The translations under genes and the position numbers were made by a program. DNA of 64,000 nt from Patescibacteria group bacterium (GTDB lineage: Bacteria > Patescibacteriota > Patescibacteriia > UBA9934 > CAMTUG01), in contig JBBTQF010000012.1 of NCBI GenBank assembly GCA_038065815.1, forward strand, positions 1,663 to 65,662, written 5' to 3'. Below the pieces are notes generated by a model. That model saw only the letters and a program-made list of their open reading frames with translations. It made no database searches and was not told the origin of the DNA. The stretch's first letter is position 1, and each line of letters begins with the position of its first letter. Shown here piece after piece: positions 2,043 to 47,134 of the stretch.

Positions 2043-2050
2043 AAGGTAAA

Positions 2051-2764: not shown

Positions 2765-2770
2765 AAGTTG

Positions 2771-3202
2771 CTACTCTTCTGGTTGATACACTCCTCCAGT
2801 ATTCACAATCAGCGATAATTCCTGCAACCGACTGCTTGTCACCGGTTCTCTTGTCGCAACAACCGCGACAGGAGCAACAGCATCGCCTTTCAAGTATGGC
2901 TTAAGCTCCGCGTCTGTAAGCTTTTTGTCCCACACCCGAAGTAATGGTTTGCGAAAAGTCTGAATCATATTTAACACGAAAAAGTGAAACGGCTGGCCGT
3001 TGATACGAATGAAGGCAAATGTGACGCCAATCAGAAAAATTGGCACACCGAACAAGAGAAACTTCCAAAAGGTGAGCAATGAGTACAGAAGCGTATCCGT
3101 CAATCCCATCGCCAGCACAATAAGAAATTGTCGCACCGAAAGTGGTCCGAGAATCTTGTCCTCGATATCAATAAATTGCGGAACCGTGAATTGCTGTACC
3201 AT
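2771..3202 (-). CDS. Small two-TM membrane protein, VirB3/PrgI-like, located upstream of VirB4.
   Basis: The 143 aa contain two hydrophobic helices (LIVLAMGLTDTLLYSLL and LLFGVPIFLIGVTFAFI). A 6-nt gap separates it from the VirB4-N ORF, the canonical VirB3-VirB4 arrangement. Confidence 0.45.
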   Translation of the reverse strand: MVQQFTVPQFIDIEDKILGPLSVRQFLIVLAMGLTDTLLYSLLTFWKFLLFGVPIFLIGVTFAFIRINGQPFHFFVLNMIQTFRKPLLRVWDKKLTDAELKPYLKGDAVAPVAVVATREPVTSSRLQELSLIVNTGGVYQPEE

Positions 3203-3225
3203 GAAGAAAATGTCTATCTATTATA

Positions 3226-4668: not shown

Positions 4669-4674
4669 AATAAA

Positions 4675-7518
4675 CTAACGACCAAAGCGCTTCTTGGCGT
4701 GTTCCGCGGCGGCGATTTTTCGAATCATGCTTGCGTCATCTTTGAGCGCTTGATAGTTATTCTTAAGAGCAAGAGTCACTTTATCAAGCGTATTGATGAG
4801 ATTAATTTGCTCCGAAGATTGCGATGGTGCGCGACGGATCTTATCTGCGATTCCTGTAATCTTGGTATCGGAGATCGCCTGTGCCACCGCCTTGCCAATC
4901 GCTCCGGCGGCGTCAGCACCGTCTATCTTGAGAATCATTTCCGGATTCTCCGAAATCATACTCTTAAAGCCAGCCTCGGCTGTCTCATCTGTAAAACGCC
5001 CTGCAGTTGAATCAAAATTAATCGCACGCGGAATGGCTGAACCCATCACCAGACGAGTCTTCATTGTTTCAGCAATTTGACGTGCGACTTGCTTTTCCAT
5101 GGCTTGTTTTTGCAAACCATATTCTGTCGATGTTTCTTTTCCGTCTTCATGTTTCGTCGTGGGTTGTTCAAAAGTCCGACCTTCTTCATCCACAAGATTA
5201 TTATCAACAAAAGTTTTAATACTTTTTCTTGCAAGATCATCGCGCTTATCCAATCTCTCATTCACCGCGCTGGTTAGCGCTGGGTTAGTCGTGGCAAGCG
5301 TGGTAAAACCTTTATTTACTGACGGATCAGTAAATTTGCTGAAAAACTCCTTGTTGCCAAGCATTTCAGGCGCAACGATATTTGATTTCAAATCATTAGC
5401 GCTCAACTTGCTAATTGATTCCGTAAGCCGATCAGTTGCTTCTGCAAGTCGCTGTTGTGCCTGCTCATGATCTAAACCAAGTCCAGCCTCTCCTCCTTCA
5501 ACACGAGTTCTAATTTTAGCTTCCTGCTGTTGAGCTGTTACAACAGATTTATGAGCACTCTGCATATCAGTCTGTCTCTTTTTTATATCTGCTTTTTCAT
5601 TCTCATTCCACAGATCAGACGTCTTCTGACCAGCCTTTCCCGCAAGGATATACTCTTCTCCAGTCCTACCTTCACGAGTCTTCTCATTACGCAGTGACTT
5701 GCGCACTCGAGGATCTGAAAGAGCTTTCTCATCTTCACCCCATGCCCGCATCTTACCTGGCGAAGCCAAAATCGTACGGACACGGTTATCAATCTCTGTC
5801 TGCTGGCGTCCTTCATACTGCTTTTCCGTTTCTCCGGGTTTTCTCTCTTTGGCATAGACAGCCGCCAGAGAAGGCGCCGCGTCAACCGCCCGACTAAATT
5901 TATCTTTGGTGGCATCGTCAAAATCGCCAACCATACCGCTATCGCGAATCTTTCCAGTAAGGTCTGTAAGTTCTTCTGGTTTAAGGGCAACACGCTTTTT
6001 CTCATCCATGACAAGTTTCAACTGAGCCGCCTGTATACGATTCTTTTCCCCATACGGCGTAAGTTTATTGATTTTAGTCCCAGCCAACCCCTTCAACTCT
6101 TCAGTCCCAAGTCCGGTCAAGCCCTTCAGAGCTTCCGCGCGGGACTCCTCTTTCTTGGCCTCCACAGCAGAAACCTGACTTAATCCAAGATCACGCACAG
6201 CACGCCCAGCGATGCCTAAACCGGGAACTTTCGCGACACCAGCCCCAACCTTACCCATAAAGCTACCAACCCCTGCTCGTGCTTTCAGAAAAGGAGCCAT
6301 ACCATAAGCTCGCGCTCCAGCTCGTCCAACTGCTAGACCGGCGCCTGCCGGAACGCCGATACCGATACGGGCAATCTGTCTGGAGAGACCTGGGATGCCG
6401 GCGATACCAGAAGTCATAAACTTGCCTGCACTACCACCGATCGAGCTTGCTGTCTGTTGGGAGATTTCGATTCCTGCAAAAATAAGTGCCAACGAGATTA
6501 TCAGACCCGTGAAGTGTGGCAGATCAAAAATTTTTGTAATAATGCCAACAGACTCACTCTCGCCAGCAGTGCCAAGATCAGTTTCAAAACCCTGCGTCTC
6601 TGCAAGCCCACCTGCTCCGGCGGTAGCCAACGCCAGCCACAAGAAAAAAGTCATGATCGGTCCGATGCTCACAGTGCTAGTAAAACGCTTCCACCAGTCC
6701 GAGTAGTATCCTTCTGCCGGCCCAATGACTCCCTTGGCGCCGCCAAGAAAAAATGCCAGAGGCGACAAAATGATGAGTATCCACAACATGACAATACGGA
6801 AAGCAAAAAGCATGGCCATGGTAAGCACGGTACCGAGTACGATAAACGAAATAACAAGACTCAAAAATGCCGCCCCAAGCAAATCCCACACACCATAACC
6901 GTTCTCTTTTTCAATTCCACGCATCGCCGCGTCCTCGCTAAACGTATACATTTTGTCGAGCCCGAACATGGAGATAAAATTTCCTCCAGCAATATCTTTG
7001 ATTGCGTTCACAAACGTAATCATGAACACTTGTCCGAAATCAATAATGAGACCGGCAATAGTGCGTGAAAAGTTGATGACGACGGCCATCAAAAGCAAAC
7101 GCGGAATTTGTTTCTTCCAATCTGCCCGACCAACGCCGAAAATCGTCTGAAAGGCGATGATGAGCAGTATGATGATAAAAAACATGTTCACAACGTCACG
7201 CACGATTGCCCAACCAAGTCCGACGATCTGCGAGGTTGTGAACTTGTCATAGCGCAAAATCGGTATGATGAGCACCTCAATCACTGCCACCACGACTTTG
7301 ACAACTTGTTGAGAAATCCACGCAAGAATTTGAGCCAGCGTAATGCCAACGCTTTCTGCGATGCTTACATCTGTTTTCTCACCGCCATCTTGGGCAAAGA
7401 CTCCTTGTACAAACAGCACGATAGCAAAAACGCAAAACATTCCGACGATCTGATATTTATGATCTCGGAGCCAATGCGTTGCAAAACGCAGACGATGTTG
7501 CAGCGTGTGCATATGCAC
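4675..7518 (-). CDS. Polytopic membrane protein of about 947 aa with a long charged C-terminal extension. It is VirB6/TrbL-like.
   Basis: An N-terminal signal/TM is followed by about eight hydrophobic helices spanning aa 30-400 and then roughly 550 aa of A/K/E/G-rich hydrophilic sequence. It sits between the M23 hydrolase and the coiled-coil gene with a 6-nt spacing to the latter. Confidence 0.4.
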   Translation of the reverse strand: MHMHTLQHRLRFATHWLRDHKYQIVGMFCVFAIVLFVQGVFAQDGGEKTDVSIAESVGITLAQILAWISQQVVKVVVAVIEVLIIPILRYDKFTTSQIVGLGWAIVRDVVNMFFIIILLIIAFQTIFGVGRADWKKQIPRLLLMAVVINFSRTIAGLIIDFGQVFMITFVNAIKDIAGGNFISMFGLDKMYTFSEDAAMRGIEKENGYGVWDLLGAAFLSLVISFIVLGTVLTMAMLFAFRIVMLWILIILSPLAFFLGGAKGVIGPAEGYYSDWWKRFTSTVSIGPIMTFFLWLALATAGAGGLAETQGFETDLGTAGESESVGIITKIFDLPHFTGLIISLALIFAGIEISQQTASSIGGSAGKFMTSGIAGIPGLSRQIARIGIGVPAGAGLAVGRAGARAYGMAPFLKARAGVGSFMGKVGAGVAKVPGLGIAGRAVRDLGLSQVSAVEAKKEESRAEALKGLTGLGTEELKGLAGTKINKLTPYGEKNRIQAAQLKLVMDEKKRVALKPEELTDLTGKIRDSGMVGDFDDATKDKFSRAVDAAPSLAAVYAKERKPGETEKQYEGRQQTEIDNRVRTILASPGKMRAWGEDEKALSDPRVRKSLRNEKTREGRTGEEYILAGKAGQKTSDLWNENEKADIKKRQTDMQSAHKSVVTAQQQEAKIRTRVEGGEAGLGLDHEQAQQRLAEATDRLTESISKLSANDLKSNIVAPEMLGNKEFFSKFTDPSVNKGFTTLATTNPALTSAVNERLDKRDDLARKSIKTFVDNNLVDEEGRTFEQPTTKHEDGKETSTEYGLQKQAMEKQVARQIAETMKTRLVMGSAIPRAINFDSTAGRFTDETAEAGFKSMISENPEMILKIDGADAAGAIGKAVAQAISDTKITGIADKIRRAPSQSSEQINLINTLDKVTLALKNNYQALKDDASMIRKIAAAEHAKKRFGR

Positions 7519-7613
7519 GCAGATTGTAACACGATTTGAGACGTTTGAACGGGCAGAGGTGGGGATAGAAACTTATAAGAGCGGGGCGGTCAGTGTGACC
7601 GCCCCGCGAAACG

Positions 7614-9380
7614 TTAAGGCACCTCGAAATATGCATCGCCACCGATGGAGCACGGATCGGTCGCCCAAACCGACGCGCTCCACGGGTCGGTATCAACCGT
7701 CACGGAAACACCGTCCACCTCAACCGTGCCACGCATGTCGATCGAGAGGCAATCGTTGTTGTATGCGGCCCAGTAGACGTCACCGCTAGAGCTCGTCTGG
7801 TACCACGCGTTGAGTTTGATCTCCTCGCCACTTTCCGCCTCTACCGACACACACATCGCGGTATCGCCGTTGTCGGCATCGTCCGCAACAGGCGAACCCC
7901 AGTAAGTGAAGGTGTTGCCGTCAAGGTAGAGGTTGCCGTCGTACATGGTGACGCCCGGCAAGTAGCAGACCTCCACGGTCGTGTCCTCGTAGGTCACAAC
8001 CTCGTCCGTCTCACTAGTATCGAGCTCTTCTTCCTCGTCGTCGGGCTCGTCCGACTCCTCCTCATCAGCACTGCCGGTATCGAATTCCTCTTCCTCGTTC
8101 TCCGCTTCTCCACCGGTATCCTCTTTCTCGTTCGGGAGTTCCTCGTCGTCATACGTATCGCCGGTATCGAGCTCGTCGGTGTCGTTGCGCTCATCGTCGT
8201 CATCGTTCTCCGCTCCGCCAATGCCAGCGACGCTACCGCCACAAGTCTCGATCATCTCCGCGTCAATGCAACCGTAGTCCGACGAACAACTACCCATCGG
8301 CAGTCCCGTGTCCGCGATCGTCCCGTCGCCAACCGTGACGATGTAGCGCGAACTGAACCCGAGCCGCAGGAAGATATCCCACGTCTCAATCGGCAGGGCC
8401 ATGCCATCGCTCACGACGTACAGGTCGGAACGGCTCGCCTCTTTCACGATGTCGCCATCGCGGAAGTACGCATTGTCCACGCGCCAGCTGACGTCACTTG
8501 TCTCGTCAATCGCCTCGCCGACGTCCATGCAGTCAAGCTCGTCAGGGGAGATGAGCACGACCTCGCTGAAATCGTAGCCGAGGTCCCAGAATACGTCCTC
8601 GCTCTCGATCCAACGGCGCTCACCGTCCTCCACGAGGTAGACGTTGTTGTCGTCCGGGGTCTTCACGAGCGTACCGTTCGGATGCCAGTTCGTGACTGGC
8701 AAAAGCGACCTGTAGGTTTCACCAGCGCCATCAAGCCCGCAGACGAAATCCTCACTTTCGAGCACGAGCTCGGACTCACCAGTACTCACGTTGTCCACGA
8801 AGTAGCCGACCTCGATCGACTCTCCGTATTCGGCCATGAGGCGTCCGTCGCCCTCGTGCAGACCGATATGCACATGGTCACCACTGCACTTGCCAGTACA
8901 ACCCTCGTAACCGAGAATCTGACCCGCCGCGACCTCAAACCCATCGCTCACGAAGATGTCGGACATGTGCGCGAGAACGACGTAGGTGCCGTCACCGAGC
9001 ACGATGTTGACGTGGTAGCCGAAGTTGAGGCTCGCTGACTCCATGTGGACGTAGGCCGTTCCGCCAATCGGCGCGTACACGATGTCGGACTCACCGTTTG
9101 GGGTGTCGAAGTCCAGATCAAGCTCCGTGCTGTCGCCAGCGTGCGAGTAGGTGTCGAAAGGCCCCTGCGTGCAGAGCGTCTTGTAACCGTCATGAAACGG
9201 CAGGTCAATGACGACTCCATCATAGCCACCCTGATCTGTGGACGAGCCGGGGTTTTCGAGCGACTCGATGAACTCTCTGTAGAGTGGATCCATCATCAAA
9301 CATCCGACCATGCCTGATGCGAAGATGAAGGTGATGATGGGAACTGCGTAGAGACGCAATTGGAACTCTTTGTGACTCAC
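7614..9380 (-). CDS. Membrane-anchored M23 (LytM) family peptidoglycan peptidase with a poly-acidic linker and a C-terminal domain. It is the cell-wall hydrolase of the T4SS-like cluster and a VirB1 analogue.
   Basis: The M23 motifs HxxxD (HAGDSTELDLD) and HxH (GDHVHIGLHEG) are present. An N-terminal signal-anchor is present. An acidic run of about 80 aa reads DDDDERNDTDELDTGDTYDDEELPNEKED...EEEEFDTGSADEEESDEPDDEEEELD. Confidence 0.7.
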   Translation of the reverse strand: MSHKEFQLRLYAVPIITFIFASGMVGCLMMDPLYREFIESLENPGSSTDQGGYDGVVIDLPFHDGYKTLCTQGPFDTYSHAGDSTELDLDFDTPNGESDIVYAPIGGTAYVHMESASLNFGYHVNIVLGDGTYVVLAHMSDIFVSDGFEVAAGQILGYEGCTGKCSGDHVHIGLHEGDGRLMAEYGESIEVGYFVDNVSTGESELVLESEDFVCGLDGAGETYRSLLPVTNWHPNGTLVKTPDDNNVYLVEDGERRWIESEDVFWDLGYDFSEVVLISPDELDCMDVGEAIDETSDVSWRVDNAYFRDGDIVKEASRSDLYVVSDGMALPIETWDIFLRLGFSSRYIVTVGDGTIADTGLPMGSCSSDYGCIDAEMIETCGGSVAGIGGAENDDDDERNDTDELDTGDTYDDEELPNEKEDTGGEAENEEEEFDTGSADEEESDEPDDEEEELDTSETDEVVTYEDTTVEVCYLPGVTMYDGNLYLDGNTFTYWGSPVADDADNGDTAMCVSVEAESGEEIKLNAWYQTSSSGDVYWAAYNNDCLSIDMRGTVEVDGVSVTVDTDPWSASVWATDPCSIGGDAYFEVP

Positions 9381-24871: not shown

Positions 24872-27800
24872 CTACGGCTCCACTCGGATTACCCCTTCGT
24901 AATATACCCACGGATCGTCCTCGGCAAACGAATCAAAATCCATATTACCGTCTGGTCGTTCAAGTTCACATTCATTATCCGCACTACTCGTATCCATATC
25001 TTCCATAGATCCATAGCAACTATCCCCATTACCAGGATTGGTTTCCGTATCCGGACACTCCCCCGTACACCACCCCCAATTATCACGCACGTGAATGCGA
25101 GGGCGGTAGACGCAGGCGGTGCCGTCAGCACATGGGGTTGAGTCTGGCAGACCATCACCGTCTTCATCTAGATTGTCGCAAGTCTCAAGTGTTACTACGA
25201 AACTCTCCGTGCAGGTATAGACATGGGAATAATTGTAGTAAGCGGATGTACAGGCGTCTGCCTCTTCGCCCCAATTCTCCGGACTCTCACCACAAAACTC
25301 TTCATTGTATTCATCCAACCCTCGAGCATTCTTGTAATAGTTGTTACTGCTTGTACTGCCAAACTGATCCGATCCGTCATCTTCATCTTGCCAGTCAATG
25401 ATCATACGGCGAATCGGCATCTGGTTGGCGTTAGCCTCCACGTAGAACTTGATGTCAGCTAGGAACTGCCCACTTGTTCCTGTGAGATTCTCATCATCAT
25501 AGCCATTGATAGAGAAAGAGTCGTTGGAGCCTTCTTGGCAGAGGTCGTCTACACAAGTGGAGCCGATGGAACGGACGATGGGGGCGGATGGGGTCGTCTC
25601 ATCTTGGTAGCTATCGCCAGTTGCTGTTACGTCAGAATAATGATCGGCCGGCGACAAATCTGCAGAACCGCTAGAACTGGTGTTAGAGCTTGATATCTCA
25701 ACTCCATCTCCATAACCCCCCGTTCCATCTCCACCATCCTTATCCCATGAGAAAAGCGTCAAAGTTTTGGCAAAGATTTGGCTTATGCCAGTCAAAAAGT
25801 CATTTAAATTTATTACTGCACTATCATACATATTATATGCACGAGCCTCCGGGTCGCTTGAGTCACCCAGCCCATCTTCGTAATAAGGTGCAAAACCATA
25901 ATATGAAGAAGAGTCGCATGTCCCATCAGCCTCTGTAAGGTAACTTGCTGTGCCAGACTCACTCACCACACAGGACAATATGCGAGCTGGAGCGGGATCA
26001 TTCCAGTCTGTCTCATTCAGCTCATCTGGAGACCATGCCGCGCCGAACGGAGCGCGGGCTGTTTTATTTGTATACTCGAATCTATCGTCCACAGCGCTGA
26101 TCTGATATGTCTCATACAACAAACGATTCGTCCACGCACGATTCCCTTCCGTAGACGCAACATTTACAAGCGTGGTACAGGCTGGATATACCCCTTGATC
26201 AAAATACAAACCCGACCAATATTTTGGACACGTAGTCCATGACCACGTTGGGCAATTGTTAAAATAAGAATCGAAATTTACATCAAAAATTGCATCGGTT
26301 CCCCCGGCTTCCATAGCCGCATAATCAAATCCCATGATCTTGCAATCCGCATAATACTCAAGCAGATTAGCAAATTCATCCGTACCGGACATCATCTTGT
26401 AAACACGATTTCCATCGGAACTTAATGGGCTGAAATACCCAGCTTCATAATCAACATCACTCTTTTTTAACGCATAAACACCCTCACCGCCGTCAATATC
26501 GTCCAAGATTCCCATGTCTTCCAGCGCCTGCGGATCATAACACGGCTCACCAAAATAATCACTCTCTTTATCCGTGTGAAACGGAACATATCCGCGTGTG
26601 GCGGTTTCATTATATAAATCCCTAACGTCATCATCATCTTCTCCACCGAGCTGTTCCGGATCTCCCGGGACACAAATATACGGATGATCGTTATAATCTG
26701 ACGTTGCTCCTCTGTCATTTTGACATTCGGCAAAATAGTTGTCACCATCTTCCGCGCTGTCCGTATCACCGGTATCGGGATCGGCATCGGTATAGATACA
26801 GCGCCCGAGAACGGCGTAATCACCTTTCGGGCAGACCGCGTTACCGTCACCGCGCAAAAGATCTTTCCAAGAGAAAACTCTATCGCCGTCGTCGTTCTCC
26901 TCTAGAGACCAGCAATCATGCGATGATTCATGCTCCGCACATGCAATACCACTCGTGCCACTCGTTTCCTCAATACTAAAATCTGAAACCGGGACATCAA
27001 CATAATAATCACTTTCTCCGCAATAGTACGTATTCGTCAGCGGATACCCCGCCTCCTCATACTTACCATAGATGTCGCTTGCGCCTGAAAGTTGATCAAG
27101 AGGCAACCAAGTTAGGCAGGCATCACTGTTAGAGTCCCCATTGACTTGCGTGCGTGCGTCGCGTTCAAGACAGTACCCTTGCCAACCCACAAGAGCCTGT
27201 TGGCCAGTAATAAATTGGCATGATCCTCCCGCTTCTTCACAGGTGGTATCCATGACATTGTAAATCGTGTTGTCAACCGCGCTGTCTATGCAAACAGCGC
27301 CGTCATACGTTCCGCCACTGCACACGCGACTGGCCGCATTTTCCGCGCCTTCGTCATAATAACGCGTAAGCGAACCATAGCTCACTTTGTCATACGAACA
27401 ATCACACTCCTCGCCTGCGACGCACAATGTTACGCGCTCAAACGTGGACTTTCGCTCGTAGGCTTTTGAGGAGTTTACCGTAGGGTCTTCCGAATCAATA
27501 CCAATCGCAGAATCACTGCTCTTCGTATTCGTATCCGTACGTTCCTTCGGGCCCAGAGCAGAATTCGCCCACGTCTCCACCACGCTATTTCCAAACGGCG
27601 CGTTAGCCTCCGGCCACCCACGGCAGTCGAGCTCTTCTCCTTCTGCCGGCTCAAATGTCTCGGCTTCACCGCTACCATCATCATCCTTTGGATCGAGCAA
27701 GCACTTGTCGTTATAACAGGCACCTGTCTGCGTTGAGGCTGACTGAACGCACGAAGCCGTGCCAATGCCAGAACACTTTAGAGTGTCGCCTTCACACGCT

Positions 27801-30800
27801 GTGCTCGTCAGATTTTGACAGACCCCGTCAATGCATGACGTGGCGCTTGTCTGGCCTGAACAATCTACGTCTGTCACGCACTTAACACTGCTTGATGGCT
27901 CATACGCACAATAACCTGTCGCGCAGAACTCACTACTGTCACACTCATCATCACTGCCACACGCGGAACCCGTGTCGCTACAAAAACCAATAGAGCAGGA
28001 CTCGCCGTCCTCCGTGCCGTCACACGCGCCAGCATAGTACACAAGACGATAATCTTCACCTGCAGATTGACATGAATAAGCGGCTCCAATATCTCCACAC
28101 TCCTCCTCTCCTTCCGTTGTGTCGCAACTCAAATAACTTCCGTCCTCATACGGTTCGTATATCTCATCAGTAGCTCCGTTTACGCACCATTTCGACGGAT
28201 TGATGTTGACTTGCGAAAGAAACTGCGCCGGAATCTGGTTTGGAATTGAGTAGCCGGCGTACTCATAACCGTACCAACCAACATCACGCGATGAATAAAG
28301 GTCAGCGGTCAGAATGTCCGGCGTCTTATCCTGCGACCAGCTTGAGCAGAAACTCGAGTCCGAAAAAGCCGAATACTCGTTACATGCGTCCACGCTGTCA
28401 CAGCTAATTTCGTATGAATTCGTGGACGTGTCCCAAACCGTTCGTGTCGAGTCGCATGCAAGCCATTCGGCGCAAGCGCGATCAAGATTTACCTTCTGCA
28501 CCATGTTCGTGTCATCCTCAAGCGCCGTCGCGTCGGACTCGCATGAACCAGAAACCAAATCACCGCCATCGCTCTCAACATCAGGACAATCCGCATCAAT
28601 CAGACACGAACCGGTGTACGTTGTTCCAGTATTATTATCGTATGGGTGCAGTAGCGCCGTATCATAACCGCAACGTTGCGTACACAAATCCACTTCAGTT
28701 CCGTCCGCCAGCACAACCTCGCCGTCATCTGGACAGGAGAGCGGATCAACCAAATCATAACTATCCGCACCAGCGTCAAACTTTGGCGCGTGCACACTGC
28801 GAATGTAGCTTGCGCTGGCATTATATGTGAGCTCGCCTTGAACGATGTCGTTAAAGAGCACACAGCCACGCTTCTGACTCACCATGCCGTTGCACTGTTT
28901 AGAAGTCGAGAGATTGGAATCATCGAGGAGCTCATCATTGATGAAGAAATACGACTCGCCTTCGTCCTGCCCGTAGAGTTCATCGCCGGTGTCGGCTGGG
29001 TCAATAAACTCGGTACAGAAATCATACTGTGCAGAGCATGTCCCACCCCAGCCATCGTAAGCGCTGTCGCCATTCCGCCAAATACTGCTTGCTGTACCGC
29101 CGGAAAGATAAGTGCCTGTATCAATTTCACACTCATCAGTTTCCTCATCAGTTGAACTTGTGCAATCCGAGTCCGTCTCACAGTCGGCACCTGACACGGT
29201 GCAAGTGCCGGTCCCATAACAGAACTCTGACGTGCCCGTACGGAACCAGCCGGAATAAGACGTGCCGTTCAAGCTCACGCTCGTTTTATACTCACAAGTT
29301 TTGTCGTTTGGATTTTTGAAAAAATACGTTGAGCCGTCAGTCGTATCCCACGCCTCGCAAAACAACGCTTCGGCCTGACAGAGTTGATCATCATACTCAT
29401 CAGGCTGGTTGAGCAGATAAGTTGACTCCCACGACGCCACAACTGTCTGATCCATACTGAACGTCGGCGCACCAGTCTCCACACAACCCATAACCGAACT
29501 CTCACATTCAAACTCGCTATTCGCGACAAAGTATACTTTCTCATCTGCATTCACCACTTGCGTCTCCGGACCAAAAACGATGCTCATATCGGCGTCGTCT
29601 GGCGCAAGCGGATTACCGTCTTCATCACGAGGCTCCCCGCCCTCCCAATCAAATAAACAATCCTTTGAGCCGGCCGTAATCGTACAAACGGTCTCCCCTT
29701 CAATCTCACAAACCACTGACGAGCTCGCCTGATCTGGTACGCCATCGCCGTCATCGTCCGCGTTGTCACAACGCACGTTATAGGAGACACCATAAGCCGA
29801 CTCCGAAGCTTGCGTATCAAAGAACCCCGCGCACCCCACCAACTCTTCCGAGCAGAGTCTGGTGAACGATTTCAAATCAGCAATATCTCCATTGGAGTCC
29901 GTGTATTCCTGACAGCCAAGATAATACAGCGGAGATTCCGCGCCATCTGCGGTCTCGTCGCACGTAGACGGCGTCACCCATGAGTCCCTAATGACTGTAA
30001 TATTCTCCTCGGTCTGGCGCAGAGTGATATTGTCAATGTAGAAATCATCACCGGACGCGTCGCCAGCAAAGGCAAGCACGGCCGTCTCGTCAAAATCCGT
30101 ATCCGTGGTGTCGAGCGGGCCGACTGTGAACTCTTCCCAGTTGGTTGAGAGATCAACACTCTCAAACGCCTGCACTGTCCCACTGCCACCGTCGTAAACA
30201 AACTTTGGTGTAATGCTGGTGCTGTTGTCCGATGCTTTTGCCCAAAAGTTGAGCACATACACCTTATCTTCGGCGAGCGCATCAGCGAGCGTTCCACAAT
30301 CATCCTCGTCCTTTTCAACCGTGCACTCAAACCCAAGTGTGCTGTCCGAGGCTTCACAGCCGTCCTCTGTTACACAAGTTGAACCGTAATCAATGTAAGC
30401 AGTGAACAACGCACCGCCAGCAATGGTCGTCACAATGTGAATCGAACGGCCATCTGTTGCAACAGACTCGTTGCTCACTTCGGCCGTGGCTCCGTCCAAA
30501 TCGTACTCATCAATATCTTCGTCTTCGACGTCATCATCGTAGACAATTGAAGAGTTACGACCGGCACCACCAGTGTATTCACGACAACCGTTTTGCGAAC
30601 TCGGACAGGAATCAGACTCATCCGTATATCCGTAAAAACGGCAATTGCCAGTTGTGGAGTCGAAGTACCCGCGTGCCGATTCACAACTTATTTCGCGCTC
30701 GCTTGAGTCTACGCCAGAAATCTCGGTTTTACGATAAGCTATACAAGAATCAGTAACGCTCACAGTATCGTCAAAACGACGATAAGAGATGTCTCCACCT

Positions 30801-33800
30801 TCATCGTAGAACTCACGGCAGTCTGGCTCATCAAAAATGTCATCATGCTCGTCGCAGGCAGAATCCGTATCCGCCGAGCCGTCGCTGTCCGCGTCCACGT
30901 CAGAGCAATATATGCCATCACTCTTCGTTTCCCAACTCGTACACGGCGCACCATCCAAATCACTCTTGAGCAAATTCCATGACTGCAGTTTGAAGCCTTC
31001 CAAATCCGATCCTTCCCACGTATAGTAAACCGCTTCATTCGTAGTCTGACTGCCTGTCACGCAGGCGCGCAAATAAGTGTAGTACTCCTGACTTTCATCC
31101 GACAGATTAGTAAACTCATCACAACCAACGTACTGCTCACTGCACGAGATGGCAGTATCCGAAATAAAATACACCGGAAATTCGCCGTCAGGTTCGTAAA
31201 GCGTCGGCTCCTGCTTGTAAGTGTCATAGCCCACGCACTCGGACGGACATTCATCAAGATCGCCTGTGATTCCAGGCACCGATGGATTGCCGTTCACTGG
31301 AGTATAAAGCAGACAACCAGCATCTTGCGCCGTACACATCTGCGAATAACTATCGCACTCCTCCGGATCGTCAGCAGAACCTTCACAACCAAGATACGAT
31401 GGCGGGAGTTTATAATAAACAAGCTGTAAATCATCAATAGCACTTCCGTAACCCTCACGGAAGTTGTCAACATCCTCATCTGCTTCAAGTTGTACCGCAT
31501 CCACGAGCAAGTCACCTCCAAAATCAAGGGAGGCTACGCGCACGCCAATCGTAGGATCGTCAAGTGTTGGCGAGGTGAATGTACAGGTGAAGCGTTCATA
31601 CTCATCAGAGTCAGGCGTGACCGACATCTGCAAAGATTCTGGTTTAGCATTCCCATCAAGACTTACAAGCTCGCAATTATCACTGTCATAACTTGTGCCG
31701 ATCAGATTAACTTCTTCAGAACCATCGCTTGAGTCTGTCACCAGATAGACAGTGAGCTCATTACTGTCACTTGAGCTCGGTTGGGCCGCATAAAACGAAA
31801 GCGTATAAAACATCGAGGCTTGGATCGAGATGTTGCGCTGGTAGATAAAGTTGCCAGACCCGGGATTCACGGCCGAGTCGCCAGAAATCGAATAGTCGCC
31901 ACTGATATCGTAGCCCGGCGTGCCGGTTGAAAGCCAGAAATCCGGTTGATCATCGCTGTTATCATCATCCTCAAAACTTGGATTGATGATGAGGTTAAGC
32001 TCGGTGTCATCATCGTCAATGACAAAACGACGGCAACCAGCATCCGAGCTGTCGCAATCTTCTACTTCACTGTTGAAATAGACACGCTCCGCGTATGTAA
32101 ACTCTGCGTCGTCATCTGTCGGAACATCAGTGATCGTCGGCCAATCAAACACGCCATCACTATCCTCTTCTTTGGTCGTTTCATACCACAGACAGCCGGC
32201 GTTATTACTATCGCACACTGACTCATCAACGGTATTAAACAGCAAATCCGAATCATCGCCATCTTCGCTAGTAAAACTTAAACACGTTCCATACTGCTCC
32301 GGACAATCTTGCCCACGGAACTGATATACGTTCTTCTCTTGCGTGCAATAACCATACCCTCCAACACATGCCCCACTCGCGTCTTCCTGAATACAGCTTG
32401 GCGCGTCAACACATTCGTCTTGACGATCTGCTCCGCTAATGGAAACGAGCTGGCCGGCCACTTGAGCCTCACATTGTGTTGAAGGATATTTCAGCACCCA
32501 GTTTGGATCAATGAGATGGCAATAAGGATATTCGGTATCGCGTTCGCCGTCCGCATTGCAGTTATCAAACGCAGAGACAACGTCCTGCAGTGTATCAGGG
32601 TCGCTACTTTGGAGATCTGCGGCTATCTCCCAACCTATCGGAATGATACGCGCCTTACGCAGTTTCACGAGGTTGCTGTAACAGTAGCCGTAAGAGTAAC
32701 AATCGCGGTCCAGATTGCGCGAATCACTGCTCGAAATGAGTGGCCGGTCTCCGTTGATGTAGCCTTCTTCAATCGCTTCCTGCACAGTGAAAGGACTGCC
32801 TGCGTCAGCGCTTCCGACAGCCGTTGCAAAACTGTCGTCCATCGTACAGTTATTCAAGCTGATAGCGTTGGTGGTTGGACACAAAATAAACTCACTCACG
32901 GCGTTATACGTATCAAGGCTGATAGGTGTTGTCGTATAAATCGTTTTGTAAAAATCTTCCGCGCCTTCAACTCCACCGCGTGTACCAACCGAGCCGACAT
33001 CAAATGAATCGGACACGCTGTCCACTGTCACGTCGTATAGTCCAGTAAACACATTATCGAGAAATGTACTCACGAATGTGTTGGCAAAGACACTTAAGGC
33101 CGATAAGCCTAAATTCTGCCAAATTTCAGGATTGTTGACGAGTAGAGCCCAATAATCTTTGGCATTTTCCTTCGGATCAAGATAAAGCTGTTTTTTCCCA
33201 GACTCAAGAGCAATGACTGTCGCAGGGGTTTTAATATTTCCAGAAATAAAATCCGCAACATCCTTATATCCCTGCTTTGCTAAAAGCTCGGCAAGCTTAA
33301 CTTTTTCCTTTTTATTAACATTCTCAAACACTTGACTGTAGATGGTCATTGAGGCAGTCAATTCTGTCTCGCGCGGATTAATCGCATCAGCAAAATATCC
33401 AAGAACGTATTTAGTCGGATCCTCGTCAAACGCATTATATTCATTCACGATCCCCGTATACGCATTTGTCCAGTTGGTCAAGGCCTTCTGAAAATCACAC
33501 CTCGGTTTCGGCTTAAATACTTGACTCAAACCGAGCTGAAGGTTGATTCTACCAAGCGCGGAAGGAGCGCACAGATCAAAATGCAATCCAGCAATATTAG
33601 CCCCCTCGCTCAATGCGGCAATGGCCTCCCCAACGATGTCGTACACAATTGAGTTGCTAAAATCCTCGAGCGAGCGCAACTCTAAAAGCGGTTCCCCTCC
33701 GGCTGCCCCAGTGGCAAGACGCACGGCAAATTCATACGAAACGCGGTTAAGAGAATACTGCAAAAGATTCCAGATGATCATGCCAAAAGCGACCTGAAAC

Positions 33801-33979
33801 GGTTTTTTGTATGCCTCTACCTCTACCTCTTTAATTACCCCCGGTATGTCCTCCACAATAATCGTCGTTATCCCCGGCGCCACCGCAAATACCTTCATTG
33901 GTGTCCCAACAAAAAGAAAAGAAAAGGACACGAGCAGTCCCAAAAAAACAAGTTTAATTCGAATCTTGTGAGGCAACAT
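24872..33979 (-). CDS. Giant (about 3035-3050 aa) secreted Cys-, Asp-, Ser/Thr-, Gly-rich surface protein with an N-terminal signal and a presumed extracellular multi-domain body.
   Basis: It is a single uninterrupted 9.1-kb ORF. The signal/TM is MLPHKIRIKLVFLGLLVSFSFLFVG; the listed ORF starts 15 codons earlier at 34024. The body has pervasive Cys with Asp-rich DxDxDG-like calcium-binding-like motifs, for example DGDGVPD and DEDGDGLPD. GC content is genome-like. Confidence 0.7.
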   Translation of the reverse strand: MLPHKIRIKLVFLGLLVSFSFLFVGTPMKVFAVAPGITTIIVEDIPGVIKEVEVEAYKKPFQVAFGMIIWNLLQYSLNRVSYEFAVRLATGAAGGEPLLELRSLEDFSNSIVYDIVGEAIAALSEGANIAGLHFDLCAPSALGRINLQLGLSQVFKPKPRCDFQKALTNWTNAYTGIVNEYNAFDEDPTKYVLGYFADAINPRETELTASMTIYSQVFENVNKKEKVKLAELLAKQGYKDVADFISGNIKTPATVIALESGKKQLYLDPKENAKDYWALLVNNPEIWQNLGLSALSVFANTFVSTFLDNVFTGLYDVTVDSVSDSFDVGSVGTRGGVEGAEDFYKTIYTTTPISLDTYNAVSEFILCPTTNAISLNNCTMDDSFATAVGSADAGSPFTVQEAIEEGYINGDRPLISSSDSRNLDRDCYSYGYCYSNLVKLRKARIIPIGWEIAADLQSSDPDTLQDVVSAFDNCNADGERDTEYPYCHLIDPNWVLKYPSTQCEAQVAGQLVSISGADRQDECVDAPSCIQEDASGACVGGYGYCTQEKNVYQFRGQDCPEQYGTCLSFTSEDGDDSDLLFNTVDESVCDSNNAGCLWYETTKEEDSDGVFDWPTITDVPTDDDAEFTYAERVYFNSEVEDCDSSDAGCRRFVIDDDDTELNLIINPSFEDDDNSDDQPDFWLSTGTPGYDISGDYSISGDSAVNPGSGNFIYQRNISIQASMFYTLSFYAAQPSSSDSNELTVYLVTDSSDGSEEVNLIGTSYDSDNCELVSLDGNAKPESLQMSVTPDSDEYERFTCTFTSPTLDDPTIGVRVASLDFGGDLLVDAVQLEADEDVDNFREGYGSAIDDLQLVYYKLPPSYLGCEGSADDPEECDSYSQMCTAQDAGCLLYTPVNGNPSVPGITGDLDECPSECVGYDTYKQEPTLYEPDGEFPVYFISDTAISCSEQYVGCDEFTNLSDESQEYYTYLRACVTGSQTTNEAVYYTWEGSDLEGFKLQSWNLLKSDLDGAPCTSWETKSDGIYCSDVDADSDGSADTDSACDEHDDIFDEPDCREFYDEGGDISYRRFDDTVSVTDSCIAYRKTEISGVDSSEREISCESARGYFDSTTGNCRFYGYTDESDSCPSSQNGCREYTGGAGRNSSIVYDDDVEDEDIDEYDLDGATAEVSNESVATDGRSIHIVTTIAGGALFTAYIDYGSTCVTEDGCEASDSTLGFECTVEKDEDDCGTLADALAEDKVYVLNFWAKASDNSTSITPKFVYDGGSGTVQAFESVDLSTNWEEFTVGPLDTTDTDFDETAVLAFAGDASGDDFYIDNITLRQTEENITVIRDSWVTPSTCDETADGAESPLYYLGCQEYTDSNGDIADLKSFTRLCSEELVGCAGFFDTQASESAYGVSYNVRCDNADDDGDGVPDQASSSVVCEIEGETVCTITAGSKDCLFDWEGGEPRDEDGNPLAPDDADMSIVFGPETQVVNADEKVYFVANSEFECESSVMGCVETGAPTFSMDQTVVASWESTYLLNQPDEYDDQLCQAEALFCEAWDTTDGSTYFFKNPNDKTCEYKTSVSLNGTSYSGWFRTGTSEFCYGTGTCTVSGADCETDSDCTSSTDEETDECEIDTGTYLSGGTASSIWRNGDSAYDGWGGTCSAQYDFCTEFIDPADTGDELYGQDEGESYFFINDELLDDSNLSTSKQCNGMVSQKRGCVLFNDIVQGELTYNASASYIRSVHAPKFDAGADSYDLVDPLSCPDDGEVVLADGTEVDLCTQRCGYDTALLHPYDNNTGTTYTGSCLIDADCPDVESDGGDLVSGSCESDATALEDDTNMVQKVNLDRACAEWLACDSTRTVWDTSTNSYEISCDSVDACNEYSAFSDSSFCSSWSQDKTPDILTADLYSSRDVGWYGYEYAGYSIPNQIPAQFLSQVNINPSKWCVNGATDEIYEPYEDGSYLSCDTTEGEEECGDIGAAYSCQSAGEDYRLVYYAGACDGTEDGESCSIGFCSDTGSACGSDDECDSSEFCATGYCAYEPSSSVKCVTDVDCSGQTSATSCIDGVCQNLTSTACEGDTLKCSGIGTASCVQSASTQTGACYNDKCLLDPKDDDGSGEAETFEPAEGEELDCRGWPEANAPFGNSVVETWANSALGPKERTDTNTKSSDSAIGIDSEDPTVNSSKAYERKSTFERVTLCVAGEECDCSYDKVSYGSLTRYYDEGAENAASRVCSGGTYDGAVCIDSAVDNTIYNVMDTTCEEAGGSCQFITGQQALVGWQGYCLERDARTQVNGDSNSDACLTWLPLDQLSGASDIYGKYEEAGYPLTNTYYCGESDYYVDVPVSDFSIEETSGTSGIACAEHESSHDCWSLEENDDGDRVFSWKDLLRGDGNAVCPKGDYAVLGRCIYTDADPDTGDTDSAEDGDNYFAECQNDRGATSDYNDHPYICVPGDPEQLGGEDDDDVRDLYNETATRGYVPFHTDKESDYFGEPCYDPQALEDMGILDDIDGGEGVYALKKSDVDYEAGYFSPLSSDGNRVYKMMSGTDEFANLLEYYADCKIMGFDYAAMEAGGTDAIFDVNFDSYFNNCPTWSWTTCPKYWSGLYFDQGVYPACTTLVNVASTEGNRAWTNRLLYETYQISAVDDRFEYTNKTARAPFGAAWSPDELNETDWNDPAPARILSCVVSESGTASYLTEADGTCDSSSYYGFAPYYEDGLGDSSDPEARAYNMYDSAVINLNDFLTGISQIFAKTLTLFSWDKDGGDGTGGYGDGVEISSSNTSSSGSADLSPADHYSDVTATGDSYQDETTPSAPIVRSIGSTCVDDLCQEGSNDSFSINGYDDENLTGTSGQFLADIKFYVEANANQMPIRRMIIDWQDEDDGSDQFGSTSSNNYYKNARGLDEYNEEFCGESPENWGEEADACTSAYYNYSHVYTCTESFVVTLETCDNLDEDGDGLPDSTPCADGTACVYRPRIHVRDNWGWCTGECPDTETNPGNGDSCYGSMEDMDTSSADNECELERPDGNMDFDSFAEDDPWVYYEGVIRVEP

Positions 33980-34607
33980 ACTCGGCAAGGACTTGGTTAT
34001 ACAATTCAATAAGCTCATCATCACTATAGTTCGCCAACATATCAGACGTCACCCCATTTTGTGAGAGCAATTCGCGCAATGACGCTGGATCCATGTTCTC
34101 AATAAGCGCTTGAACGCTAGCTGGGTCGCTTCCGGACTCGATGAGTTGCTGAAGAAAGGCGGAGTTGTCCTCTGGCGCTTCAATCGAGGAGGCAACTTCT
34201 TCACCGATATCAACGGAGATCTCGTTGGTTCTGGAACATTCACTGTCAATCGGACAGTTTGGATCGTTTCCAGAATTGAGCTCCTGCGCATCGTCATAAC
34301 CGTCAGAGTCAGAGTCAGAGAGATACGGCGAGGTGCCGTAGACTTCCTGCTCATCATAATCGTTGAGTCCATCACTGTCCGTATCGCGCACCTTCATTGC
34401 ATTCTTCTCTGCCTCTTCTTGCTGTACAACAAACGATTCGTCATCTGTCAGCGTCAGCTGGAAAGGCAGTGATAAATTTTTTCCAATGTAGCGCGTGCCT
34501 AGTGTGATGCCTCCGATGCCCGCAATGATAAGCAACAACAAAGCCGCCCTTTCTGGACCAGAAAATGGCGAGCGAGGTTCACTCGGAATAACCGGCTGAT
34601 TTTGCAT
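33954..34607 (-). CDS. Membrane-anchored protein with thrombospondin-type-3-like Asp-rich calcium-binding repeats.
   Basis: There is an N-terminal TM (AALLLLIIAGIGGITLG). DTDSDGLNDYDE and SDSDSDGYDDAQE fit DxDxDGxxDxxD. Its 3' end overlaps the giant gene start by about 26-70 nt. Confidence 0.5.
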   Translation of the reverse strand: MQNQPVIPSEPRSPFSGPERAALLLLIIAGIGGITLGTRYIGKNLSLPFQLTLTDDESFVVQQEEAEKNAMKVRDTDSDGLNDYDEQEVYGTSPYLSDSDSDGYDDAQELNSGNDPNCPIDSECSRTNEISVDIGEEVASSIEAPEDNSAFLQQLIESGSDPASVQALIENMDPASLRELLSQNGVTSDMLANYSDDELIELYNQVLAEYVASQDSN

Positions 34608-37043: not shown

Positions 37044-38139
37044 TTATAATTTTTTTACGCTCCAGCGCAGATACGCCTCCACAAATCCATCGAGCTCACC
37101 ATTGAGCACGGCTTGCGCATCTGCTGTCTCGAAATCTGTACGATGATCCTTCACGAGTTTGTAAGGATGCAATACATACGATCGCGCTTGATTTCCCCAC
37201 TCCGCGCTGGTGTACTCTCCGCGCAACGCCTGTTTCTCTTTTCGTTGTTCCTGAAGCGCCAACTGATGCAGTTTGGATTTGAGCACCTTGAGCGCTGTCT
37301 CCTTATTTTGCAACTGCGAACGCTCGTTCTGGCAACTCACCGTGATACCGGTTGGAATGTGCACAACACGCACGGCTGAATACGTCGTCTGCACGCTCTG
37401 CCCTCCATGTCCGCCAGCGAGAAATGTATCAATGCGCAAATCCTTCGGATCAATCTCCATCTCTTTAAGATTTTCAAACTCTGGCAGAACCTCGACAAGC
37501 GCAAAAGTAGTATGACGCATCTTCTCTGCATCGAAAGGCGAAATGCGCACAAGCCGATGCACACCAGCCTCTGATTTTAAATAACCAAAGGCATAACGTC
37601 CAACGACTCGTAGCATCACACTCTTGATCCCCGCCTCCTCCCCGCGTGATTCAGAAAGCACATCAATACGCATCCCTTTTCGCTCCACGTAACGCATGTA
37701 CATACGTAGGAGCATTTCTGTCCAATCGTTTGCCTCTGTTCCGCCACTACCAGCATGAATCGCGATAATCGCGTTACTCGGATCATGCTCACCAGAAAAT
37801 AATGTTTGAAACTCAAGCCTAGAGAATCGTTCTACAAGATCGCGCGTTTTTCCTTCAATCTCTTCTTTGAGACTCGAATCGTCCAATCGTTCTAGCTCCA
37901 TGAGCTCTTCGAGCTCCTTATGAAGCGTCTCCCATGTCTCAATCTCACGACGAAGATCCGCAGTCTGCTGACTCACATCCGCAGCCCTGCGCGTATCTAC
38001 CCAAAAATCCGCCATCGCCATTGTCGCTTCGAGCTCTATGAGCTCGGCCTTTTTCTTTGGAAGGTCAAAGCAACCCCCACGTTTGGTGGAGGCGATGTTG
38101 GAGTGTCGTTAAGGTATTAGAGCTTAATCTCTCGAGCAT
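37044..38139 (-). CDS. prfB: Peptide chain release factor 2 with a programmed +1 ribosomal frameshift.
   Basis: The main ORF (37044..38021) carries the GGQ motif (AGGHGGQSVQTT) and the RF2 SPF motif (RISPFDAEKMRHTTFA). Upstream, the short frame-0 ORF MLERLSSNTLTTLQHRLHQTWGLL ends in CTT TGA C (38065-38070). It is preceded by an internal Shine-Dalgarno GGGGG (38074-38078), 3 nt away. A +1 shift at CTT-T joins it to the main frame. The ATG is at 38137-38139. Confidence 0.8.
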
Positions 38140-38497: not shown

Positions 38498-40132
<1,635 letters not shown>

Positions 40133-40155: not shown

Positions 40156-40443
40156 CTACTCGATAATTGCGACGACATCGTCCATGCGAATCACGAGATA
40201 TTCTTGGTCGTCAACTTTGATTTCATCAGGCGCATATTTCTTAAACACGACCTTATCCCCGATCTTCACCTCCATGCTAGAGCGTGAGCCATTATCAAGC
40301 ACCTTGCCCGGACCAACAGCGATCACCTCACCGCGCTCCTGACGTTCCTTATCAACGGTATCAGGCAAAATAATCCCCGATTTTGTCACCTCTTCTTTGG
40401 AAAGACCACGGACAATTACATGATCACCTAGCGGTTTCAACAT
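40156..40443 (-). CDS. groES: Co-chaperonin GroES.
   Basis: The 95 aa begin MLKPLGDHVIVR and carry a GxxxxxGxxxL mobile loop. It lies immediately upstream of groEL. Confidence 0.9.
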   Translation of the reverse strand: MLKPLGDHVIVRGLSKEEVTKSGIILPDTVDKERQERGEVIAVGPGKVLDNGSRSSMEVKIGDKVVFKKYAPDEIKVDDQEYLVIRMDDVVAIIE

Positions 40444-40502
40444 AACTATAAAATAATGAGTTAGGTACCCTATTTAGACATAATTAAGCATAGTTCGTCA
40501 AG

Positions 40503-40665
40503 GGGGTCTGTCGCCAAATGTGCTTTTGATACGAAACTTCAGATGTTCGAGACAGAATTGCTGAATAAACTTTGCGGTTTAACTATAGTTAAGCCAAAAA
40601 GTTTTGAAGCGATTATGGCCGGACAGATGAGGTTGTAGTCAAAATGACATTTGGCGACAGACCCC
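40503..40665. repeat. An 18-bp perfect inverted repeat (GGGGTCTGTCGCCAAATG / CATTTGGCGACAGACCCC) flanks a 127-bp spacer. The spacer contains the perfect 14-bp palindrome TTAACTATAGTTAA (40579-40592). The element sits in the groES upstream region.
   Basis: Seen directly. No CIRCE (TTAGCACTC-N9-GAGTGCTAA) is present. Confidence 0.5.
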
Positions 40666-40685
40666 AAGGGTAGAAAAACGACAAG

Positions 40686-40722
40686 ACACGAGGGAGTGCC
40701 TCGTGTCGTGGTTAGATCGAAA
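40686..40722 (-). terminator. Terminator of the 40730..41113 gene (GACACGAGG-gagtg-CCTCGTGTC followed by GTCGTTTTTCT on the minus strand).
   Basis: A perfect 9-bp stem lies next to the stop and is followed by a T-run. Confidence 0.5.
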
Positions 40723-40729
40723 AGAATGA

Positions 40730-41113
40730 TCATTGATGATGGATGCAGAGGAGGATGTCGGCCACCTCGCAGGATGACGTCATTGCGATTCGGATTTTAT
40801 CCGACCCCGCGTAGACGACGAGCGGAAGGAAGTCCTTGTCGAAGAGACCAGCACACGGCACTACCTTCACGCCCCTCATGTCGTGACTCATACGGGCAAA
40901 AACACGCTCCAGCAGTTTGCACGACTCGCCAGCGCTGTCAGTGTAGATCTCTTCACGGACACGAGTGAATCGTTCCGCGAGTTCCGTGATTACCGAAGAA
41001 GCGTTGTGGCGGATGAAGATACGAAAGACGTCCACTTTGGTTTTCATGGTGCCTCCAAGGACGAGACGGTTATATCGTAAAACACCCGCGTAGTCAAGAG
41101 TGTGTGTGATCAT
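40730..41113 (-). CDS. Hypothetical protein of 127 aa.
   Basis: It is an ORF with its own terminator. No motif is recognised. Confidence 0.35.
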   Translation of the reverse strand: MITHTLDYAGVLRYNRLVLGGTMKTKVDVFRIFIRHNASSVITELAERFTRVREEIYTDSAGESCKLLERVFARMSHDMRGVKVVPCAGLFDKDFLPLVVYAGSDKIRIAMTSSCEVADILLCIHHQ

Positions 41114-47015: not shown

Positions 47016-47099
47016 GCGGACGTGGTGAAATGGTAGACACGCTGGCTCGAGGGGCCAGTGCCGCAAGGCGTGGAGGTTCGAGTCCTCTCGTCCGCACCA
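47016..47099 (+). tRNA. tRNA-Leu (anticodon GAG) with a long variable arm, CCA encoded.
   Basis: The sequence is GCGGACGTGGTGAAATGGTAGACACGCTGGCTCGAGGGGCCAGTGCCGCAAGGCGTGGAGGTTCGAGTCCTCTCGTCCGCACCA. It has a 3-bp D-stem and a 13-nt variable arm typical of Leu, and the anticodon loop reads TCGAGGG. Confidence 0.75.
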
Positions 47100-47134
47100 A
47101 AACATTGATTCCAATTTGGAATCAATGTTTTTTT

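Follow-up and report, generated by a model that had tools for sequence, protein, structure and literature searches.

Correia elements of Neisseria and the ERIC sequences of enterobacteria are intergenic repeats of 100-160 nt that fold into a single long hairpin. Many of them are found between a terminator and a promoter, and co-transcription occurs in both orientations; Correia elements duplicate TA, ERIC has no clear duplication, and both occur in tens to hundreds of copies per genome. Rickettsia palindromic elements (RPEs) can sit in frame within protein-coding genes. Hallmarks of the Tn3 family are a box A with the sequence 5′-GGGGT and 5-bp staggered insertion (PMC9579193). In TIMEs, which are miniature elements derived from Tn3, the inverted repeats (IRs) are conserved, the core less so and the size highly so, and stable stem-loops form; their copy number is low, usually one per genome, and many copies have no direct repeats (PMC4133298). 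When present, their duplications are of 5 or 6 bp and lie in A+T-rich DNA (PMC4133298; PMC13367494).

We analyzed a 64,000-nt stretch of contig JBBTQF010000012.1 (assembly GCA_038065815.1) from a Patescibacteria group bacterium, here called the window. An inverted repeat upstream of its groES gene is intergenic and forms a hairpin over its whole length, as Correia elements and ERIC do, with a sequence unrelated to theirs. One member of the family to which it belongs lies in frame inside a Wzy_C ORF, in the manner of RPEs, but the window copy lies between genes, the two kinds are not related in sequence, and RPEs have neither these terminal repeats nor a 5-bp duplication. An inverted repeat upstream of groES also recalls CIRCE, the HrcA operator; the element differs from it in being 161 nt long, mobile and located upstream of the −35, and the CIRCE consensus is absent. 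We consider it very probable that this is a 161-nt hairpin miniature inverted-repeat transposable element (MITE) inserted at the groES promoter, that it belongs to a Patescibacteria-wide family, and that its mobilizer is most likely Tn3-like.

The inverted repeat upstream of groES

The features of the locus, in window coordinates, are these.

38498-40123, minus strand: groEL, 541 aa (PF00118)
40156-40443, minus strand: groES, 95 aa (PF00166)
40472-40480, minus strand: putative extended −10-like block TGTCTAAAT, 18 nt past the −35
40496-40501, minus strand: putative groES −35 hexamer TTGACG, conserved in relatives L058, L059, L060 and L061; its TTG comes from the duplicated pentamer
40499-40503, no strand: left copy of the duplicated target CAAGG, which reads CCTTG on the strand of groES; 7 members have perfect 5-bp repeats at the same GGG...CCC boundary
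40504-40664, plus strand (family polarity follows the window plus strand): 161-nt hairpin, in all probability a MITE, delimited by fold, family alignment, HMM and absence from relatives
40504-40529, plus strand: left terminal inverted repeat GGGTCTGTCGCCAAATGTGCTTTTGA, from arm pairing; kept in about 20 copies
40579-40592, no strand: apex palindrome TTAACTATAGTTAA, of which the family keeps the pairing only
40639-40664, plus strand: right terminal inverted repeat TCAAAATGACATTTGGCGACAGACCC, from arm pairing and family alignment
40665-40669, no strand: right target-site duplication CAAGG, a 5-bp direct repeat with 40499-40503
40681-40707, minus strand: intrinsic-terminator-like hairpin and T-run of the upstream small ORF; relatives have a homologous hairpin
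40730-41113, minus strand: upstream hypothetical ORF, 105-127 aa, syntenic in relatives and matching no family

Along the minus strand, the small ORF (41113-40730) is followed by the terminator-like hairpin (40707-40681), the element, 59 nt and the groES start, which agrees with the position between a terminator and groES given in the first-pass annotation. The 18-bp perfect inverted repeats described there are exact: GGGGTCTGTCGCCAAATG lies at 40503-40520 and its reverse complement at 40648-40665. Only these two matches to the 18-mer occur in the 64-kb window at up to 3 mismatches, where shuffled sequences lead one to expect 0.05. The complementary arms reach 27 nt at 93%, and the perfect terminal repeat is 19 bp. 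Upon folding, the 163 nt form one imperfect rod-like hairpin with the 14-bp internal palindrome, also correctly noted, at its tip. A 181-nt stretch folds as a single strong hairpin on both strands, at −88.2 kcal/mol on the plus strand (z = −12.1) and −66.2 kcal/mol on the minus strand (z = −9.2). Of the proposed 3-bp target duplication AAG, the flanking letters stand at both ends, but they are the core of a 5-bp repeat, CAAGG. With the CAAGG direct repeats set as flanks, the element proper spans 40504-40664, has the termini GGGTCTGTCGCCRAATG and is without coding capacity.

No second copy was found in the 64-kb window, either with the 18-mer at up to 3 mismatches or by a family profile search. 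In an Rfam search of the whole window at gathering thresholds only two tRNAs passed, with nothing on the element; in a permissive search of 40380-40800, the best match on the element was to a plant miRNA model and scored 22.7 bits, where the threshold is 195. Elsewhere in the window, a perfect palindrome of 16+16 nt (AAAACATTGATTCCAAtTTGGAATCAATGTTTT, 47099-47131) lies 3 nt past a tRNA gene (47016-47096, plus strand), between two divergent tRNA genes.

Empty sites and the groES promoter

An identical GroES protein is encoded on Hainich groundwater contigs and in the MAG GCA_964359465.1, annotated as Patescibacteria group bacterium. Four of the contigs with identical GroES carry the element, and four others start inside it, three at 31 nt (L005, L007, L008) and one at 56 nt (L004) from its end. 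Assemblies are broken inside the element in L004, L005, L007, L008, L025, L029 and L053; these breaks suggest branching assembly graphs, as expected of a repeat.

We then compared relatives whose GroES is 98% (L058, L059), 87% (L060) or 83% (L061-L064) identical to that of the window. The window and these relatives share the gene order Wzy_C, a small ORF of about 105 aa, groES, groEL, MamF-like and prfB, with a spacer between the small ORF and groES of 120-146 nt in the relatives versus 286 nt in the window. Relatives L058-L062 are without the element, which in a multiple alignment is a single clean gap for L058-L061; L063, with a short hairpin of its own at this spot, aligns partly across the region. 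When the element and one pentamer are removed, the remaining 130 nt of the window spacer can be aligned over their full length to the 127-nt L061 spacer, with a gapless junction, from the terminator hairpin on one side to TTGACG...TATGTCTAAATAGG on the other. Together, the empty sites and the gapless junction indicate that the element is an insertion in the window's lineage. A recent event is suggested by the perfect duplication and by ends that match perfectly over 19 bp.

Two further observations concern this gene neighborhood. In L063 (2880-2930) and also in L064, the hairpin at the same terminator-to-promoter spot is a perfect one of 37 nt, GGGGTCAGGTCTTGTAtctggTACAAGACCTGACCCC, whose termini start GGGGTC as in the MITE; a CIRCE-like site with 3 mismatches then follows at L063:2975. 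The window's prfB-type release factor ORF (37044-38021, with PCRF and RF-1 domains) is called at only 325 aa, and the sequence for its N terminus may be in a different frame, as with the programmed RF2 frameshift.

The multiple alignment places TTGACG at the same position in the window and in L058, L059, L060 and L061, and the block TATGTCTAAATAGG is identical in the window and L061. We infer that TTGACG (40501-40496) is the groES −35 and that a TG-extended −10-like CTAAAT (40477-40472) comes 18 nt later; a consensus promoter scan reported no full promoter in the groES upstream region. The duplicated pentamer CCTTG overlaps the first three bases of this hexamer, so that its groES-proximal copy restores an intact −35 beside the element end and the core promoter would be preserved. 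As far as the sequence can tell, only what lies upstream of the putative −35 was altered. We propose that a DDE-type transposase acting in trans made a 5-bp staggered cut in the spacer between the small-ORF terminator and the groES promoter, that the cut pentamer CCTTG overlapped the start of the −35, and that the duplication rebuilt TTGACG. Such an insertion would have been roughly neutral for groES expression.

The absence of CIRCE, as first annotated, holds throughout the 64-kb window for the pattern TTAGCACTC-N9-GAGTGCTAA at up to 3 mismatches. The same pattern recognized a perfect CIRCE in another contig, L020, and found none in L058-L062; L063 has its 3-mismatch site. Since element-free relatives also have no intact CIRCE, its absence is a property of the clade and is unrelated to the element. 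In L020, a family member (1121-1352) lies 22 nt upstream of the perfect CIRCE TTAGCACTCttgacaagcGAGTGCTAA, with TTGACA in the spacer, and of the start of hrcA (TIGR00331, E = 1.7e-37). Some Patescibacteria thus keep HrcA/CIRCE, and this is a second insertion of the MITE family at a heat-shock promoter.

A dispersed family with 5-bp target duplications

Other copies were sought by exact word scans with the 18-mer, over one genome per species and over metagenomes. About 20 independent copies were found in unrelated contexts in public genomes and metagenomes; all have the termini GGGTCTGTCGCCRAATG, and most are 158-164 nt long. A full-length copy in a Magasanikbacteria MAG (L012), upstream of murC, is 80.7% identical over 176 nt, and in a Patescibacteria MAG (L015) two copies lie 2.4 kb from each other; their termini are the same, but their interiors differ. 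The metagenome scan produced 40 loci, which, with up to 3 mismatches accepted in the second arm, yielded about 18 further independent paired elements. Length variants measure 57-84 nt (deletion forms), 132 nt and 209 nt, and three more copies are cut by contig ends. The family has hosts in several lineages of Patescibacteria, sampled in groundwater, sediment and other metagenomes; a scan of viral contigs for the 18-mer gave 0 matches. The first-pass annotation had reasoned that a structure without other copies and without a palindrome conserved in relatives would be due to chance. Copies exist, and the palindrome is conserved as pairing and not as sequence. A search of our literature library found nothing on the element sequences or on MITEs in Patescibacteria; the family is new, and new for its host group, and the class of element is ordinary.

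Neighboring genes, which include murC, Wzy_C and hrcA, differ between sites. In an all-against-all clustering of ORFs no gene family recurred except in duplicate assemblies of one organism, and both orientations relative to the flanking genes occur. These data bear on the second reading offered in the annotation, a large stem-loop and operator of groESL. As a cis-regulatory operator or leader, the element would replace CIRCE/HrcA, with a repressor on the apex palindrome, and its position directly upstream of groES, the central perfect 14-bp palindrome and the missing CIRCE fit this idea. However, the element lies upstream of the conserved −35 and not between promoter and start codon, close relatives keep the same promoter blocks without it, and members adjoin many unrelated genes in both orientations. 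The apex palindrome, moreover, has a different sequence in every subfamily, pairing alone being kept, and is therefore not a protein operator. We regard this reading as extremely improbable and favor the MITE reading, also given in the annotation, which is supported by the empty sites, the roughly 20 copies with the same termini and the target duplications.

The duplications were counted in 21 copies at the boundary GGG...CCC. Perfect 5-bp direct repeats flank seven of them: CAAGG in the window, CAATG in L012, CTAAA in L036, TATAG in L043, AAAAG in L040, and, at the two members of L045, which are 1.6 kb apart, TTTAA (copy 1) and CTAAG (copy 2). The imperfect copies match at 4/5 positions (one copy), 3/5 (one copy) or at most 2/5 (12 copies). 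This bimodal distribution suggests that the copies without repeats may have arisen by rearrangement rather than by slow decay. The flanks follow a Y-W-A-W-R pattern; position 1 is often C and position 5 often G, so that most copies read GGGGT...ACCCC. We also considered GGGG ends with a 3-bp duplication, and found that both extra positions match in all seven intact cases as well. A GGG boundary with a 5-bp duplication accounts for the odd terminal bases of L036, L043, L045 and L040. The 3-bp model was rejected because it needs several coincident terminal-base "mutations" that match the distal flank. Of the features that characterize MITEs, these were found here: terminal repeats, a duplication of fixed length, a precise empty site, small size, and dispersed copies without transposase.

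Several individual copies are unusual. A 162-nt member (L022:809-970, also L042:2945-3106) lies in frame within a 550-aa Wzy_C (O-antigen ligase-like) ORF, to which it adds 54 residues (GSVAEYRF...SIRRQTP); the segment is a gap in five other Wzy_C proteins. Paired copies occur in L045 (1464-1626 and 3161-3235) and L015 (2374-2505 and 4866-4945), 1.6-2.4 kb apart, with genes of unknown function between them, and the 75-nt copy of L045 corresponds to the 163-nt type with a clean internal deletion. A composite transposon was rejected for these pairs: a separate duplication flanks each L045 copy, and no matching repeats occur at the outer sides of the L015 pair. The L015 interiors (2400-2480 and 4890-4925) hold a different palindrome, GTCATTCCTGCG(C/A)AAGCAGGAATGAC, apparently an independent short repeat that has nested within the MITE ends or fused with them. 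The right flank of the window copy (40665-40688, CAAGGGTAGAAAAACGACAAGAC) is about 85% identical to that of L015 copy 1 (2505-2529, CAAGGGGAGGAAAACCGACAAAAC) and has the same pentamer CAAGG. Both flanks are terminator T-tails on the opposite strand, and their likeness could reflect target preference, chance or co-transfer.

Solitary 18-mer matches in L010, L013, L014, L017, L019, L023, L024, L035, L041, L051 and L054 are best taken as chance. Most of them lie within long ORFs of G+C-rich contigs, and in none does family similarity go past about 20 nt. In a Vogelbacteria MAG (L011:1671-1689), a PIF1-like helicase takes its final codons and stop (…LWGSVAK*) from a solitary end, and in a Saccharibacteria MAG (L016:969-986) a 310-aa ORF does likewise; these two may be half-element remnants.

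Hairpin maintenance, strand polarity and the mobilizing enzyme

The long copies form four subfamilies, whose interiors are about 55-60% alike in global alignment. Interior arms are 76% complementary within elements versus 56% between subfamilies. Pairing holds in 96.9% of cells for the subfamily that includes the window copy, and double changes occur in 18 of 65 pairs, against a mean of 7.2 in shuffled controls (0/500 shuffles reach 18) and 0-4 in slid controls. All of the distinct long copies (16/16) fold better on the strand that matches the window plus strand, by 4-27 kcal/mol, and the family HMM scores the window copy at 123 bits on the plus strand versus 50 bits on the minus strand. A strand-neutral mismatch count gave 45 G-T versus 21 A-C, with a nominal p of 0.004 that is suggestive only, the copies being related. 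Judging from these comparisons, the element is polar, and its palindrome is being actively kept up.

Template-switch correction of quasi-palindromes, a requirement of transposition and selection on a transcript are all possible causes of hairpin upkeep. The first of these is a known mutational mechanism by which arms can co-evolve without selection. We suggest that such correction, a need of transposition, or both would maintain the hairpin, which is simpler than a host regulatory role. Members of the family share termini conserved over about 19-27 bp and a conserved length near 161 nt, and their interiors diverge but remain hairpins.

One-sided folding in 16/16 copies, an orientation-specific HMM, strong covariation and constant length are also what a free-standing gene for a structured small RNA, a 6S-type rod or similar read from the window plus strand, would present. 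Yet the element has no Rfam match, 6S RNA included, and no promoter or terminator travels along with it. Target duplications of 5 bp flank the element, close relatives do not have it, one member lies in frame within an ORF, and deletion forms of 57-84 nt exist. A terminal stem that is nearly invariant over 19 bp is typical of ends bound by a transposase, not of RNA helices. We judge a small RNA gene to be very unlikely.

The MITE may instead have been co-opted by its host, with its hairpin working at the level of RNA or DNA: it could, for instance, serve as an additional terminator or an insulator between the upstream ORF and groES, be cut by RNase III, or modify the DNA upstream of the promoter. 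Similar roles have been discussed for TIMEs, ERIC and Correia elements (PMC4133298). A maintained hairpin with strand polarity between terminator and promoter would suit them, and 2 of about 20 insertions, those of the window and L020, lie upstream of heat-shock operons. Against this, relatives function without the element, both orientations relative to neighbors occur, and arm co-evolution through template-switch correction can proceed without selection; co-option is in our opinion unlikely.

A more general proposal is that one folded strand, of DNA or RNA, is the functional form and that the family is more than junk DNA. It arises from interiors that are only about 55-60% identical and yet keep a constant 161 nt, about 76% arm complementarity and a uniform strand polarity, and the excess of G-T over A-C mismatches likewise leaves room for such a function. 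The folded strand could be the substrate of an undescribed Patescibacteria transposase that acts on hairpins and makes 5-bp duplications, or a domesticated RNA hairpin serving as a portable terminator, insulator or processing site in reduced genomes. We hold this proposal to be doubtful and continue with the plain MITE reading.

The outer 18 nt of the element are identical at 14/18 positions to the sequence that we take to be the 38-nt Tn3 IR, which sits beside blaTEM in >5000 plasmids; with GGGG fixed, 0.0002 of shuffles were as good. Identity to the IS101 IRL is 13/18. Past about 18 nt the likeness to Tn3-family IRs is lost, and aligning the inner 20 nt requires gaps. The element resembles TIMEs in having no transposase, a 5-bp duplication in A+T-rich targets and GGGGT ends in most copies, and the family does so in its conserved repeats, divergent core, constant size, long stem-loop, low number of copies per genome and many copies without duplication. 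It differs in size (161 nt versus 209-288 nt), in that only about 18 nt of its end resemble Tn3 or IS101 IRs, the inner half being unlike, in a duplication that abuts GGG and not GGGG, and in its hosts, Patescibacteria chromosomes here versus proteobacterial plasmids for TIMEs.

Other known systems were considered and rejected. Integron attC sites have the core sites R″ and R′ of the form RYYYAAC and GTTRRRY; the ends here read GGGTCTG...CAGACCC, and the copies are solitary and intergenic, with neither array nor integrase. REP/RAYT and IS200/IS605-derived palindromes make no target duplication and are recognized as single-strand hairpins by a Y1 transposase; a REP/RAYT, PATE or IS200/IS605-derived palindrome was rejected given the 5-bp duplications, with no Y1 transposase gene seen among the neighbors. 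The absence of any Rfam match removed 6S RNA.

We searched for a transposase by all-against-all clustering of neighboring ORFs, by listing ORFs of at least 450 aa in the family loci, and, in the window, with Pfam on eight ORFs of 550-947 aa. No Tn3-family or other transposase was found near any copy, at the solitary 18-mer loci or among these window ORFs, and exact 18-mer scans found no autonomous element with matching ends in 47 scan-derived loci or the window. A plasmid BLAST with a 43-nt end gave chance-level matches only (E = 7). Among plasmids, a Bradyrhizobium match was rejected as an element end, being an unannotated stretch whose reading frames have no Tn3-type transposase. A literature search on Tn3 in CPR returned nothing relevant.

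Two regions of the window stood out among its large ORFs. The 3050-aa ORF (24872-34024) has a counterpart at the equivalent position of L001 with only a faint CBM_4_9 match. A cluster at 120-9380 encodes a TraG/VirB4-like ATPase (120-2042), a 947-aa ORF without Pfam match (4675-7518) and an M23 peptidase protein (7614-9380), and may be of secretion or conjugation type.

We infer a Tn3-like enzyme from just the 5-bp duplication and the end similarity, no transposase partner having been found. A non-Tn3 transposase that makes 5-bp duplications, or an undescribed CPR transposase, could move the MITE instead: no Tn3-family gene occurs in the loci examined, the IR likeness is limited to 18 nt, and the duplication abuts GGG. 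We view this as a real but less likely possibility. Against it, GGGGT...ACCCC reads as a Tn3 box A in most copies, 14/18 positions agree with the Tn3 IR, and the population features are TIME-like. By sequence, membership among the TIMEs is plausible and a Tn3-family-like mobilizing enzyme most likely.

For the host, these results mean that groES has no new heat-shock operator here, which removes a tempting false lead, and the insertion together with the conserved TTGACG marks the putative position of the groES −35. A MITE family is now defined by a clear signature: its members have GGGTCTGTCGCCRAATG ends, measure about 161 nt and are flanked by duplications of 5 bp. The family breaks assemblies and can pass for a structured RNA in covariation screens. 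It points to a transposase, possibly Tn3-like, that is active in the small genomes of Patescibacteria.
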